Assembly (NCBI GenBank): GCA_964642055.1
Contig: CAZXLM010000002.1
Location: 3,793-67,792 of the forward strand
Direction of reading: 5' to 3'
Source: an uncultured Acutalibacter sp.
Lineage (GTDB): Bacteria; Bacillota; Clostridia; Oscillospirales; Acutalibacteraceae
Length of the DNA: 64,000 nt
Shown piece by piece: positions 6,039 to 59,842 of this stretch (position 1 is the stretch's first letter; the number at the start of each line of letters is the position of its first letter). The notes beneath the pieces were generated by a model that was not told the DNA's origin, made no database searches, and was given only the letters and a program-made list of their open reading frames with translations. The position numbers and the translations under genes are program-made.

Positions 6039-6308
6039 CTAGCTGTGGGGAATACAACTAAAATCTAGAAATAATTTCCAAAATTTGTCGATTTCTGTGA
6101 TATCGACCTCTTTTTCCACCCCAAAAAGCTTAATTTTCAACTCTGTCCTTCCCTCAGGCATGTCCATCGTCTGCAAGGGCAGGTCGCTGTCTCCGAAGCT
6201 GAGCCGCCGGCCCTGGTAGTCCACCGCCACGAATCCGGCTGCCGCCATCAGAAGGAACAGAGATATGCCGAGAGAGAGCCAAAATGCCCGCCGCCCTTCT
6301 TTTTTCAT
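6039..6308 (-). CDS. Hypothetical small membrane-anchored protein downstream of spoIIP
   Basis: GGGGGA SD 6 nt before the ATG. N-terminal TM segment AFWLSLGISLFLLMAAAGFVAV. Confidence 0.45.
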   Translation of the reverse strand: MKKEGRRAFWLSLGISLFLLMAAAGFVAVDYQGRRLSFGDSDLPLQTMDMPEGRTELKIKLFGVEKEVDITEIDKFWKLFLDFSCIPHS

Positions 6309-6424
6309 ACCGGTCCCCCTTTTCAGCAGACAAATTCCGCATCATTTAGGATTGCCGGTTTTTCAGTGTTTAGACTGCTGCTTTTCGGAACAGCACAGGA
6401 AAAAAATACATTTTTGTGCGCGTA

Positions 6425-7564
6425 TCATCCCTCCTTTATGCGGGAAAAGGTCTCTGCCAAGATCTCTCCCAGCATTTTTCCGGAATATTTCGCTTCGGAA
6501 ACGGTGTTCACCTCCGTACCCACCTCAATGAGCATGGAACCTCTTGTAGCATTCATATTGTATTTGCTCTCTGAGAAGTCAAGGGGCCGCGCCAGCCCGG
6601 GATACAGCTGCTCCGCCGTCTGCTGCACCCGGAGAATCAGCCGGAGATTATCCCGCCAGTCCGGGAAATCCCCCCATTCCCCGCTGGCGTCACATCCGGC
6701 CAGCAGCATGACCTGCGCCGCTTTTCTGCCGTTTATCACTGCGGTAGGCTTATATTTCACTCCCTCCTGGGTAGTCATGGAATCCCTGTGCAGGTCAATG
6801 GTCACCTGAATGCCCGGGTATTCCTCCAGATTTTTCTGGATCACGTCCCAGGAACGGGAATAGGAGCCGTTATAGATGGCATCGTTTACCGTGGCGTCGT
6901 GTATCACCCCAAATCCCCGGGCCTCCAGTTCTTTTTTCAGCTCCTCCCCCACTGCCACGACGCTCATATCCTGATTCTGGGTACGGGTTTCCATATCCGT
7001 GTAATAAAATCCGGTATAATCCTTCGAGTAGGCCTCTGAGGTGTGGGTGTGATAGATCAGCACCTCCACACTGCCGTCCCCTTTCAGGCTGACCGCCGGG
7101 CTTTCCTGCAATTCTGCGTTCAGATCCGTGTCAGAGCCTGTGGTATCCCTTACAAAAAAATCGGCGATCTGCTCTCCGCCGTCCAACGCGATCTCCTCCA
7201 CCGGCGCGGAAACCCGCGCCGGGTCCGGGGTAACGGCCGCCCCCGGCAGCTCGTCATTGTGGAACGGGACAATGCCATCGTCTGCGAAAGCCTCCATGCG
7301 GCCTGCCAGAAACCCGGTTTCAGGCTGCGCAGGGGCTTCCGAAACAGCGGGCGTTCTTTCCGCCGGACTGCCGGGGCTTTCCACTGGAGCCGATTCTCCT
7401 TCGGAAGACTCCTCCCTGCGCATACCGGCAATAAAAAGCAGAGCATCCGTGCCGTTTTCCGCCGTCCAGCTGCCCAGCGCCGACGCCGCGCACCATACGC
7501 AGAGGGCGAGGCAGCCCCAAACTGCCAGATTTTTCATAGCCCGGAGGCAAAAGCTTTTTTTCAT
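6425..7564 (-). CDS. spoIIP: Stage II sporulation protein P
   Basis: VLIYHTHTSEAY, TIDLHRDS and LIEVGT blocks of the SpoIIP amidase-like family; N-terminal signal/anchor. Confidence 0.85.
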   Translation of the reverse strand: MKKSFCLRAMKNLAVWGCLALCVWCAASALGSWTAENGTDALLFIAGMRREESSEGESAPVESPGSPAERTPAVSEAPAQPETGFLAGRMEAFADDGIVPFHNDELPGAAVTPDPARVSAPVEEIALDGGEQIADFFVRDTTGSDTDLNAELQESPAVSLKGDGSVEVLIYHTHTSEAYSKDYTGFYYTDMETRTQNQDMSVVAVGEELKKELEARGFGVIHDATVNDAIYNGSYSRSWDVIQKNLEEYPGIQVTIDLHRDSMTTQEGVKYKPTAVINGRKAAQVMLLAGCDASGEWGDFPDWRDNLRLILRVQQTAEQLYPGLARPLDFSESKYNMNATRGSMLIEVGTEVNTVSEAKYSGKMLGEILAETFSRIKEG

Positions 7565-42350: not shown

Positions 42351-42426
42351 GACTCATTAGCTCAGTTGGCAGAGCACTTGACTTTTAATCAAGGTGTCCG
42401 GGGTTCGAATCCCCGATGGGTCACCA
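42351..42426 (+). tRNA. tRNA-Lys (anticodon UUU), CCA encoded
   Basis: Acceptor stem GACTCAT/ATGGGTC, D-arm AGCTCAGTTGGCAGAGC, anticodon loop CTTTTAA, T-arm GGGGTTCGAATCCCC, 3' CCA. Confidence 0.9.
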
Positions 42427-57527: not shown

Positions 57528-57690
57528 AAAAAAGTGCGCAGCCGAAGCCGCGCACCGAAAAACGCACGGCTCCTCTGGTTACCACGCCAAGTTTTCGATA
57601 CAACACAGGTATGCGAAAAATGAAGCCTGCATTTTTACCAAAAAGGTAAAATGCACACCTGTGTCTATCAATATTCACTTGACGTGGTAG
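57528..57690 (-). ncRNA. Structured RNA cassette A (about 163 nt), unclassified; also the only possible 5' leader of the XRE gene
   Basis: Promoter TTGAAA (57723-57718), 17-nt spacer, TGaTAAGAT (-10 at 57700-57695). Stems: P1 UACCACGUCAAGU/ACUUGGCGUGGUA, P2 ACACAGGUGUGC/GCAUACCUGUGU, P3 AUUUUACC/GGUAAAAAU. Terminator GUGCGCGGC-UUCG-GCUGCGCAC plus U6 (57555-57528). Confidence 0.7.
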
Positions 57691-57810
57691 TTTCATCTTA
57701 TCATTAATTTCACATTTTTTCAAGGGTCAAGTAATATTCCCCATAAAAATGGCCTGAGCCTACCTTCTATCGAAAACCGGGCGGCTTTTCTATGACAAAC
57801 TTCCCCAAAC

Positions 57811-57978
57811 AAAAAAGTGCGCAGCCGAAGCCACGCACCGAAAAACGCATGGCTCCATTGCTGCGACACAATTCTTTTTTGCAGTTCATTTAACGCACAA
57901 AAAAGCAGAGCCTGCATTTTTACCCATAGGGTAAAATGTGCGTTAATGAACTTAAATATACTTATTGAATTGTGCCGC
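57811..57978 (-). ncRNA. Structured RNA cassette B (about 168 nt), unclassified
   Basis: Promoter TTTACT (58013-58008), 17-nt spacer, TGgTATTGT (-10 at 57990-57985). Stems: P1 GCGGCACAAUUC/GAAUUGUGUCGC, P2 AGUUCAUUAACGCAC/GUGCGUUAAAUGAACU, P3 AUUUUACCC/GGGUAAAAAU. UUCG-loop terminator plus U6 (57838-57811). Confidence 0.7.
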
Positions 57979-58025
57979 AAATTTACAATACCATATTTGA
58001 CCTGAAAAGTAAAGCGCTCCAAAAC

Positions 58026-58191
58026 AAAAAAGTGCGCAGCCGAGGCCGCGCACCGAAAAACGCACGGCTCCATTGCTGCGACACAATCACTTTTGGCAGT
58101 TGCTATACTGTATGCAAAAGTTTGAGCCTGCATTTTTACCAAAGCAAAAATGCACACAGTATAGTATCCCACCCATATTCGATTGTGTCGC
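58026..58191 (-). ncRNA. Structured RNA cassette C (about 166 nt), unclassified
   Basis: Promoter identical to B (-35 at 58226-58221, -10 at 58203-58198). Stems: P1 GCGACACAAUC/GAUUGUGUCGC, P2 CUAUACUGUGUGC/GCAUACAGUAUAG, P3 AUUUUUGC/GUAAAAAU. Terminator hairpin plus U6 (58053-58026). Confidence 0.7.
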
Positions 58192-58245
58192 AAATTTACA
58201 ATACCATATTTGACCTGAAAAGTAAAGTATAATAAACAAAAACGC

Positions 58246-58550
58246 AAAAAATCTGTCCCAGCTTGGGACAGATTCAAAGCAGAAAGAAGTACATTCTCTT
58301 TGCGAAAAGCAGAAAAAGCTGTTATGATAGCATCGTGCAGAAATGCACAGAAAGGTCTGCCATAACGGTAGGCGGTTTGGCTACACCACCCGAAAGGGGG
58401 TGATGCCATGCGAGTTACGTTACATACCGGGCCTTTTACGGTTACGATTCTTGTAAAACGCAGAAACCGCCACTCGGCCAAGTGACGGTTTCTTTGAAAA
58501 AATAAAGAAACTCAACTGAGCCAAACCGTCTATCGGCAGACCCTTTCTTT
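58246..58550 (-). ncRNA. Structured RNA D (about 305 nt), unclassified
   Basis: Starts about 7 nt after a consensus promoter. A ~30-bp closing helix joins 58548-58519 with 58382-58349, enclosing several hairpins. It ends at the AUCUGUCCCA-AGC-UGGGACAGAU plus U-run terminator (58273-58246). No conserved or SD-preceded ORF is present. Confidence 0.65.
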
Positions 58551-58556
58551 ATTTTT

Positions 58557-58585
58557 ATTATAATGGCTGCCTTGCGATTTGTCAA
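58557..58585 (-). promoter_or_regulatory. Perfect consensus sigma-A promoter driving RNA D
   Basis: Minus strand reads TTGACA (58585-58580), an exactly 17-nt spacer, then TATAAT (58562-58557). Confidence 0.75.
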
Positions 58586-58641
58586 GCGCAGGTCTGCTGT
58601 TGAAAACCGTCCCAACTTGGGACAGATTCAAAGCGAAAAGG

Positions 58642-58673
58642 AAAAAAGCCTCCCCTTGATTTTCAAGGGGAGG
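58642..58673 (-). terminator. Intrinsic terminator of the ATP-grasp gene
   Basis: Minus-strand CCTCCCCTTG-AAAAT-CAAGGGGAGG followed by CTTTTTT. Confidence 0.75.
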
Positions 58674-58801
58674 TGGCATGGCGTAAGCCATGACGGAGGG
58701 ATTGTTTGAAACGGCAGGAACTTCTGAGCAAGCCTTAACACGTCAATCCCTCAACCTGCTATGCAGGCAGTTTCTGCCGCTCATCTTCTCCACCAGCAGG
58801 A

Positions 58802-59842
58802 CTACAGCTCCGGGATAAGCTTTTTATAGGTGGGCCATAAACCGATGCGGTCCGGCGTATGTTCAGGCTGCTGCCAGAAATCGTAGCCGGGATAATCGTT
58901 GCCCTCAATGATGGCCGGGCCGGTGGGAGTAATGGCACAGTCCCAGCCTACAAAGCGCATGCCCGGTTCTTCCAGAGCCGCTTTTTTGCAAAGCTCAATG
59001 GCCTCTTTTACATAGGGGATCCGATAACCCATCAGCTCTATGCCGGTCTCCGGGTGATGGGTCAGCGTAGTCAGGGCAGAGGTGTGCCCCACGCCGGTAA
59101 TTTCTCCGGTTTCATAATCAATCGGGCAGAACATGCCGCCGTTTTCCAGATTATCCACATATTTACCACCGGCGCCTATTTTTACCACAGCGTAAATGAG
59201 CTGCGGCTCCCAATGCTCTGGGGAACCTGTGAGCAAGGTGACGATGCGCAAAGTATTCACCGCGCTGGGATAAAGCCTGCTCATGGCTTCGTGCTGAATG
59301 ATCATTTCCCCGATCACGCCAAAGCCCTGGGCTTTGATATAGCGATACATTTCCTCCACGCTTTCAAAATCCGCCTTTTTGAGTCTCTCGATCCCCTTAC
59401 CGCTTTCCCCCACGTCCGGCTTTGCGAAAATGCGCTCCTTGTCTTTTACAAATTCGGTAAACTGTTCCAGGGTCATTTCATCTACCACTAGAAAATCCCG
59501 GCCCAGGTAGTCTCGAAAACGGGGGTTAAATTTTGTCTTGTGGTCGAATATTTCCGCCGTTTCCGGATCGTTCAGCAGAGTGATCATCTTTTTGTTGCGG
59601 ACCCGGGTCACATAAGTATCTCGATGTTTGCCGTCCATATTGTAAAATCCGAACATGACATAATCGTGGTAACCCGCGCCATATCGAACGGAACACCATA
59701 GCATATCCAAAAAAATACCGGCCCTGCTTCTGCCGGAGCGTTCCTTCGCCCTGCCAATAGAGCGAGACAATTCTTCCAGACGTACGCCACTGAGGACTCT
59801 CCCGAGGTAACCCACCCGGGAGAGCAAATTCATCTTTTTCAT
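58802..59842 (-). CDS. ATP-grasp protein of the sugar-transfer-associated (ATPgrasp_ST-like) family
   Basis: Size and blocks (FAKPDVGESGKGIE, NTLRIVT, VGWDCAITPTGPAIIEGN) match the family usually found in capsule or glycopolymer loci; assignment from memory. Confidence 0.65.
   Translation of the reverse strand: MKKMNLLSRVGYLGRVLSGVRLEELSRSIGRAKERSGRSRAGIFLDMLWCSVRYGAGYHDYVMFGFYNMDGKHRDTYVTRVRNKKMITLLNDPETAEIFDHKTKFNPRFRDYLGRDFLVVDEMTLEQFTEFVKDKERIFAKPDVGESGKGIERLKKADFESVEEMYRYIKAQGFGVIGEMIIQHEAMSRLYPSAVNTLRIVTLLTGSPEHWEPQLIYAVVKIGAGGKYVDNLENGGMFCPIDYETGEITGVGHTSALTTLTHHPETGIELMGYRIPYVKEAIELCKKAALEEPGMRFVGWDCAITPTGPAIIEGNDYPGYDFWQQPEHTPDRIGLWPTYKKLIPEL

Follow-up and report, generated by a model that had tools for sequence, protein, structure and literature searches.

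We analysed a 64,000-nucleotide (nt) stretch of DNA from an uncultured Acutalibacter sp. (contig CAZXLM010000002.1), hereafter the window, and in it a minus-strand unit, RNA D, which an earlier note on this DNA had likened to a stand-alone 6S RNA. The locus is probably a two-strand type I toxin-antitoxin (TA)-like module, in which RNA D would be the cis-antisense RNA of an mRNA for a 25-codon peptide encoded on the plus strand. RNA D is read as the antisense partner of a small-peptide mRNA because its relatives are multi-copy, tandem units, because they conserve an open reading frame (ORF) with a Shine-Dalgarno (SD) sequence and often a promoter, and because sibling units encode Hol_Tox peptides. 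As far as the sequences of the relatives tell, the structured RNA recognized in the earlier note is real: the transcript unit is conserved, has a consensus promoter and is closed by a helix joining its two ends.

The coding half of the cassette has the following features in the window:
58408 to 58485, plus strand: conserved small ORF of 25 codons and a TGA stop, encoding MRVTLHTGPFTVTILVKRRNRHSAK.
58384 to 58402, plus strand: SD-sequestering hairpin, CACCACCC-GAAA-GGGGGUG, with the SD at 58396-58402, 5 nt before the ATG.
58335 to 58348, plus strand: 5' stem-loop of the predicted mRNA, GUGCAGAAAUGCAC.
58300 to 58328, plus strand: putative convergent promoter driving the peptide mRNA, TTGCGA-17-TATGAT (extended -10 motif TG), matching 9 of 12 consensus positions, predicted start at ~58335.

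Promoters and ORFs were counted over 89 distinct members of the family (88 for the mRNA promoter), and structure statistics were taken from a 90-sequence alignment. The ORF was retained in 83 of the 89 members, with an ATG start in 70, a GTG start in 13 and, invariably, a TGA stop. The encoded peptides are 20, 25, 26 or 27 residues long, so that indels keep the frame, and follow the consensus MRITLHIG(P/A)(F/Y)TVTIIVKRRNRHxx(K/R). Calculated from a peptide-guided alignment of related, non-independent sequences, the ratio of nonsynonymous to synonymous polymorphism (pN/pS) was lowest in the ORF frame (0.32, 0 stops) compared with the other two plus-strand frames (1.45 and 1.64) and the three frames of the opposite strand (0.95, 0.42 in a frame with 20 stops, and 3.09). 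ORFs on the RNA D strand, compared by eye, shared no frame between the window and Vescimonas, and their start was missing in Yanshouia. The earlier note had seen no ORF behind the RNA D promoter; that observation stands for the minus strand, where there is only a mechanical 253-residue frame without a Pfam match, but it does not hold for the plus strand, with its conserved 25-codon ORF.

In the family the SD sequence is GGGGGUG or GGAGG and lies 5-9 nt before the start codon. It is the 3' arm of the hairpin that the earlier note had drawn on RNA D, CACCCCC-UUUC-GGGUGGUG, as read on the other strand, a hairpin present in both the minimum free energy (MFE) fold and the family consensus, with compensatory changes. 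An independent MAFFT alignment showed 89% of its cells paired on the plus strand, 36 of them as G.U cells; read on the minus strand, these cells give C.A mismatches (31, against 2 G.U). Because G.U occurs only on the plus strand, the hairpin is best explained as an SD-sequestering structure of the plus-strand mRNA. Its loop is a GNRA tetraloop in 69 of 83 members, and variants of the stem stay SD-like (GGAGG, GGGGG). An alternative pairing was also seen at columns 32-36 and 53-57 of alignment A9 (plus strand 58371-58375 with 58386-58390), which joins a GGCGG in the 5' untranslated region (UTR) to the anti-SD CCACC and contains many G.U cells; we speculate that it could be a switch that frees the SD once the long-range helix is lost.

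Of 88 members, 50 have a promoter at this site that faces the same way and matches at least 10 of 12 consensus positions; in 17 of these it is perfect. It sits just past the 3' arm of the helix that closes RNA D and points back into the unit. The mRNA modelled from 58335 to 58556 on the plus strand folds at -89.9 kcal/mol (z = -7.6), with the 5' stem-loop, an end-to-end helix and the SD hairpin.

On the other strand, or shared between both, lie the following features:
58585 to 58557, minus strand: sigma-A-type promoter of RNA D, TTGACA-17-TATAAT, matching the consensus at 12 of 12 positions.
58246 to 58550, minus strand: predicted long form of RNA D, ~305 nt, based on the fold and the covariance-model match, with both ends predicted.
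58519 to 58550, both strands: closing-helix arm 1, the 5' end of RNA D and 3' UTR of the plus-strand mRNA.
58349 to 58382, both strands: closing-helix arm 2, the 5' UTR of the plus-strand mRNA and 3' part of the RNA D core.
58463 to 58492, both strands: hairpin 1, GAAACCGYCAC-8 nt-GUGRCGGUUUC, with the TGA of the ORF within one arm.
58275 to 58249, minus strand: intrinsic terminator of RNA D, 12 pairs and a U-run, inside copy 1 of a 28-nt element.
58453 to 58550, minus strand: possible short form of RNA D, ~95 nt, comprising the 5' helix arm, a variable linker, hairpin 1 and a UGCGUUUU tail.

Promoter and terminator are as the earlier note had them, and transcription of RNA D would start at ~58550. 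The minus strand from 58550 to 58246 folds with an MFE of -116.5 kcal/mol (z = -7.2 vs. dinucleotide shuffles, 0 of 100 shuffles being as stable). The plus strand of the same stretch folds equally well (-117.7, z = -6.6), and this likeness first suggested that the two strands might both be important. The RNA D fold consists of an interrupted closing helix of ~30 base pairs (58550-58519 with 58382-58349) around three hairpins and a variable linker; the multi-branched interior of the earlier drawing recurs in both MFE and consensus folds, and so does its hairpin GAAACCGUCAC/GUGGCGGUUUC, again with compensatory changes. The local hairpin UUUUAC-13 nt-GUAAAA of that drawing was not borne out: its bases are near-invariant, leaving no covariation to test, and the consensus fold pairs the UUAC with a distal GUAA.

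In its long form RNA D would be the full complement of the peptide mRNA and of that mRNA's promoter. The short form is suggested by a terminator-like call at 58479-58465 on the minus strand, where hairpin 1 occupies the site of a bidirectional terminator in the sibling cassettes, and it would span the mRNA 3' UTR and the last ~11 codons. Orphan units in other loci correspond exactly to the half covered by this short form. They consist of a consensus promoter, the 5' helix arm, a linker and hairpin 1, and lack the ORF half; examples are L062 2440-2570, L001 3662-3560 (minus strand), L025 1575-1680, L090 1718-1830, L020 and L028 (L numbers designate loci). These may be free-standing short antisense RNAs or decay products.

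A BLAST search revealed a relative of the unit in the 860-kb replicon of Vescimonas fastidiosa MM35, with two tandem full copies, each with a perfect promoter, and a third, truncated copy of the orphan type on the other strand. This chromid was the sole match among plasmids, and phage genomes gave no match for either the unit DNA or the peptide. At the positions of the Vescimonas copies, the PLSDB gene table of the plasmid record, itself incomplete, shows no feature. A pattern for the conserved core yielded 9 loci in a species-representative genome set, all from Oscillospiraceae or Oscillospiraceae-like genomes and including Yanshouia hominis, Ca. Pseudobutyricicoccus, Ruminococcaceae D5, bacterium 1XD42-1 and metagenome-assembled genomes. 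A second, partly independent pattern yielded at least 120 human-gut metagenome contigs and 28 IMG/VR contigs. Covariance model R1, built from 11 sequences, recovered ~125 full-length copies and scored the window copy at 185 bits (58348-58550). Tandem arrays are frequent (L001, L009, L128). The RNA D promoter matches the consensus at 12 of 12 positions in 64 of the 89 members and at 10 or more in 82, its conservation being limited to the hexamers, with unconserved spacers. No conserved protein partner was found: 146 neighbouring ORFs fell into 100 clusters, mostly housekeeping, and because no protein-coding neighbour is conserved we regard the unit as self-contained.

Six loci (L030, L036, L042, L098, L118, L124) have on the same strand, ending ~30-40 nt before the cassette, a gene for a protein of 127-176 residues with weak similarity to ribbon-helix-helix (tandem-RHH) or TacA-like antitoxins and 35-75% mutual identity. 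This neighbour probably reflects orthologous context; it may also be a functional link. Two further cassettes, in Yanshouia hominis (L003 2038-3138) and Ruminococcaceae D5 (L007 1774-2874), have a gene for a phage tail sheath (phrog_1480, E = 5e-126) at a distance of ~44 nt, and the 28 IMG/VR viral contigs bear the hairpin-1 pattern. Some copies may ride on prophages.

The closing helix is kept and covaries in ~90 relatives. Over the whole fold 94.8% of cells were paired, compared with 35-50% when the partners were slid, and 30 of 50 pairs showed compensatory, both-side changes; no shuffle attained the observed values. An independent plus-strand MAFFT alignment gave a closely similar result (94% paired vs. 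39-50% slid). The level of pairing and the both-side changes indicate that the fold drawn in the earlier note is evolutionarily maintained. Within the closing helix, compensatory changes were present in 8 of 8 outer pairs in the MAFFT alignment and in 12 of 18 pairs in the model-fitted alignment. Non-Watson-Crick cells of this helix are balanced between the RNA D and plus strands (G.U 73 vs. A.C 58), and the helix thus appears to be tolerated on both. In hairpin 1 the loop-closing pair is CG in 47 members and UA in 40, and the A of the plus-strand TGA stop comes from a U.G wobble that is almost invariant (86 of 89).

The consensus promoter, strong fold and highly conserved core could also be those of a stand-alone structured non-coding RNA (ncRNA) made from the minus strand, 6S-like or otherwise protein-binding, with the plus-strand ORF an accident of nucleotide conservation; the wobble pairs of hairpin 1 and helices 7-9, where G.U is much commoner than A.C on the minus strand, point the same way. 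We consider this very improbable. It leaves unexplained why 83 of 89 members should combine the ORF with an SD, a start, a stop, frame-keeping indels and the lowest pN/pS of the six frames, and why the SD hairpin should be a plus-strand structure; moreover, sibling units replace the core with toxin ORFs while keeping the flanks, and the orphans hold the 5' half only. Rfam 15 offers no counterpart either. With gathering thresholds, cmscan reported nothing in the whole window other than one tRNA gene (42351-42423, plus strand, 71 bits). A permissive scan of 57800-59000 (E<=10) gave nothing credible: the 6S family RF00013 was not listed, the best minus-strand matches had E>=0.4, and, as the earlier note had judged by inspection, there was no credible sign of signal recognition particle (SRP) RNA, RNase P, tmRNA or a T-box. 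The best match overall, ctRNA_pND324 on the plus strand, scored 24.1 bits vs. a gathering score of 45 and was treated as chance. Y RNA-like and antitoxin RNA families gave no credible match in either scan, and literature searches for an ncRNA described in Oscillospiraceae had no result. We also rejected a retron, a riboswitch leader, a Y RNA and a miniature inverted-repeat transposable element (MITE), since genes for a reverse transcriptase or Ro are missing, no gene follows downstream, the termini are not conserved and the ORF is conserved.

RNA D resembles 6S RNA (RF00013) in its length of ~200 nt, its strong promoter and the long helix joining its 5' and 3' ends. It differs in having a branched interior rather than a rod with one large open-promoter-like bubble, in having no covariance-model match, and in belonging to a multi-copy, tandem family with truncated variants and an opposite-strand ORF. 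With the Hol_Tox siblings added to these differences, the 6S-like proposal of the earlier note was abandoned.

The sibling units were found next to the units with the basic peptide. In Ca. Pseudobutyricicoccus (L009), an array at 6180-7410 comprises four units, the first two of which carry the basic peptide. Units 3 and 4 have near-identical promoters, helix arms, SD hairpin and convergent promoter, and a different interior that encodes MVTYSELFQLLMFLVAFAGLILQLSKRK or MITYSELFAYTLVIIGIVGLMLQIANKK. Related sibling units adjoin type-A units in L031, L060, L073 and L076 and also occur in L039. Three sibling peptides scored above the PF16935 Hol_Tox threshold (33.1, 31.3 and 24.6 bits vs. a cutoff of 23.3), and the Hol_Tox sibling peptides resemble the Staphylococcus aureus type I toxin PepG1, below its threshold. 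A third type of cargo (MWGDRGKQFLRFLVWTVILTCILSIKAR and relatives; MWGDRGKQ…/MGKNRRGK…) belongs to no family. Arrays of mixed cargo, with three cargo types overall, were observed in L009 (6180-7410), L031 (3964-4577), L060, L073, L076, L091 and L128. The distribution points to cargo exchange by recombination within conserved flanks. Hol_Tox units have, where hairpin 1 would lie, a hairpin with a good U-run behind it on the strand equivalent to RNA D, which makes it a terminator common to both convergent genes.

The conserved basic C-terminal tail, KRRNRHxxK/R, bears on this arrangement. Throughout the family V-K-R-R-N-R-H is encoded by the complement of the 3' arm of hairpin 1 and of the adjoining U-rich tract on the RNA D strand (58453-58471); the same holds for the Hol_Tox siblings, whose C-terminal lysines are complementary to the U-run of the antisense RNA terminator. 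There is a mutual constraint between charged tail and shared terminator.

Several points weigh against the TA-like module. The window peptide has a grand average of hydropathy (GRAVY) of -0.4, a net charge of +6 and a best 11-residue hydropathy window of 1.1, compared with 2.8-3.3 in the Hol_Tox siblings. It contains no transmembrane segment, and neither it nor four type-A variants matched any Pfam or NCBIfam family, PF16935 included. The mRNA promoter of the window reaches only 9 of 12 positions, and the pN/pS values carry the non-independence of the sequences behind them. In the closing helix, covariation from base pairing is not separable from concerted evolution of an inverted repeat. In hairpin 1 and inner helices 7-9 the RNA D strand has far more G.U than A.C, so that RNA D structure may be selected for its own sake, a part of the excess being explained by coding needs such as the TGA. 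Finally, we infer both transcripts, their ends and the translation of the peptide from the sequence alone.

Peptide-family searches returned only a sub-threshold similarity to YrzI (E = 0.2-0.3). From a large protein database, the sole matches were 22 ORF calls, over-extended and unnamed. AlphaFold2 modelled a 32-residue relative as a beta-hairpin, not a helix, with a predicted local distance difference test (pLDDT) score of ~80. A peptide of this kind, with no hydrophobic membrane segment and no family match, could equally belong to a small-protein gene that is tuned by RNA D as a cis-antisense RNA and is no toxin at all, its product being regulatory or binding nucleic acids or ribosomes; the ORF, the SD hairpin and the antisense promoter fit that reading just as well. 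We think it unlikely, since the same framework bears Hol_Tox peptides in sibling units of the same arrays, and since the units are multi-copy, tandem, variable in position and accompanied by decayed or orphan copies, as in selfish TA loci. The MRITLHIGPFTVTIIVKRRNRH-type peptide might represent a new class of type I toxin, a suggestion we put forward tentatively and with more doubt than belief. Instead of a membrane helix, this toxin would be a polybasic beta-hairpin whose targets are nucleic acids or ribosomes, or which acts by aggregating. Its carrier would be a modular RNA chassis (convergent consensus promoters, 5'-3' helix, GNRA-capped SD hairpin) that gut Oscillospiraceae would reuse with at least three interchangeable cargos, and to which the RNA D fold would add a function beyond complementarity.

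For the TA-like module we propose the following mechanism. The plus-strand promoter at 58300-58328 would produce an mRNA of ~215 nt, from ~58335 to 58555, whose 5' and 3' ends would pair through the closing helix and whose SD would be locked in the GNRA-capped hairpin. Full-length mRNA would be kept translationally inert by its own 5'-3' pairing and by the SD hairpin. From the consensus promoter at 58585-58557, RNA D would be strongly expressed as a perfect complement of the mRNA. If RNA D stops at hairpin 1, this short form would form a duplex with the final codons and the 3' UTR of the mRNA; if it extends to 58275-58249, the long form would also cover the SD, the start codon and the mRNA promoter. 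RNA D would silence the peptide through duplex formation, leading to a translation block, to RNase III-type cleavage or to both, and convergent transcription would add transcriptional interference.

The unit lies in an intergenic stretch of 1.27 kb, flanked by an ATP-grasp gene (59842-58802) on one side and an XRE-type regulator (57529-57194) on the other, with phosphoenolpyruvate carboxykinase (PEPCK) further upstream and M23 and VanY peptidases downstream; nothing in this region of the window marks a prophage. Two copies of a 28-nt hairpin element bracket it, as the earlier note had reported:
58253 to 58280 (extended repeat 58249 to 58286): copy 1, which contains the RNA D terminator.
58607 to 58634, minus strand: copy 2, which differs at exactly two positions, has a weak U4 tail and lies shortly before the RNA D promoter.

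Copy 2 follows the terminator of the ATP-grasp gene (58673-58649). The element has just these two copies in the window, with 0 expected by chance, and was not found in any related locus examined. Copy 2 may be the leftover terminator of a lost upstream tandem unit.

Multiple copies with variable neighbours, equal folding of both strands, metagenome assemblies that break beside the locus and the position of the window unit between 28-38-nt direct repeats would also be expected of a repeated DNA element, MITE-like or a recombination relic, whose inverted repeat and spread reflect mobility and not RNA function. We find this hardly credible: at the outer ends only promoter hexamers are conserved and not their spacers, neither terminal repeats in common nor target duplications were seen, the 28-nt repeat occurs in the window only, and mobility alone does not explain the coding and SD signals. 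As to the assemblies, all 20 public contigs that encode exactly the ATP-grasp protein of the window are metagenome assemblies of <5 kb, and six of them (L159-L164) all end ~130 nt past its stop, just before the cassette. These ends fit assemblies breaking at a repeated or variable element.

Directly downstream of RNA D, at 57530-58240 on the minus strand, are three tandem units of ~215-285 nt with long inverted repeats. A conserved hairpin, …UGCAUUUUUACC…GGUAAAAAUGCAGGCU, recurs in each of them, and each ends in a near-identical terminator, GGUGCG(C/U)GGC(U/C)UCGGCUGCGCAC-U6 (58054-58031, 57839-57816 and 57556-57533). No Rfam match and no conserved small ORF were found in them, and a link to the RNA D family was rejected, as neither the related loci nor the plasmid collection contain their motifs. 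They appear to be a further small-RNA family, placed just upstream of the XRE regulator gene. The mechanical 253-residue ORF on the minus strand (57720-58481) spans the RNA D core, its terminator and two of these three units. An open frame of that length is unusual for an AT-rich intergenic stretch; its composition is not protein-like, it has no Pfam match, and it is probably not a gene.

If the TA-like module is correct, a dominant group of human-gut bacteria that has been little studied carries an abundant family of small-peptide cassettes, unannotated and under antisense control. Rfam 15, Pfam and NCBIfam lack this family. One regulatory RNA framework would host several peptides, one of them non-hydrophobic, and this would widen what counts as a type I toxin. 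Where a strong orphan promoter precedes a well-folded RNA, the opposite strand should be searched for tiny ORFs. Since Vescimonas fastidiosa MM35 and Yanshouia hominis BX1 are carriers available in culture, the model is directly testable.

Type I toxins are shorter than 60 residues and usually hydrophobic, with a charged C-terminus; in Gram-positive families the antisense RNA lies at the 3' side and overlaps the ORF, and type I loci display SD/anti-SD stem-loops, long-distance 5'-3' pairing, terminator stem-loops and tandem repetition (PMC6563280, PMC8594479). In the window, the plus-strand ORF at 58408-58485 is below 60 residues and under purifying selection, and the peptide has the charged C-terminus and lacks the hydrophobic or transmembrane character of such toxins (PMC6563280). 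The sequence also contains an overlapping antisense gene with its own, predicted promoter, an SD sequestered by a stem-loop and 5'-3' long-distance pairing (PMC8594479). The window cassette, as predicted, has all the RNA-level features of a type I TA system and departs from it at its polar, basic peptide.

Compared with TxpA/RatA and SprG/SprF, the cassette shares a convergent mRNA and antisense RNA, a 3'-side overlap at the end of the ORF and a common central hairpin or terminator (PMC8594479), and it also shares the basic C-terminal tail of the window peptide and the Hol_Tox peptides of sibling cassettes. It differs in that the window peptide has no Hol_Tox match or transmembrane segment, in that RNA D matches no Rfam antitoxin family, and in that long RNA D would cover the whole mRNA and not its 3' end alone. 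AapA1/IsoA1 of Helicobacter and hok/sok have in common with it the end-to-end helix of the mRNA, the anti-SD/SD stem-loop and multi-copy tandem loci (PMC8594479). There is, however, no sequence relationship to them, their hosts are Proteobacteria or Campylobacterota, and the arrangement of promoters differs; those systems are activated by 3' processing. The Ibs/Sib loci of Escherichia coli combine a very small ORF with complete or near-complete RNA overlap in repeated intergenic units that have their own promoters. The window cassette resembles them in its tiny ORF, in its full or near-full overlap and in its repeated intergenic units, each with promoters, whereas Ibs is strongly hydrophobic and the window peptide basic and polar, there is no profile match, and the host phylum is another. 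We filed the cassette as type I TA-like with a new kind of cargo, and not as a 6S RNA or a member of Hol_Tox, TxpA or SprG.

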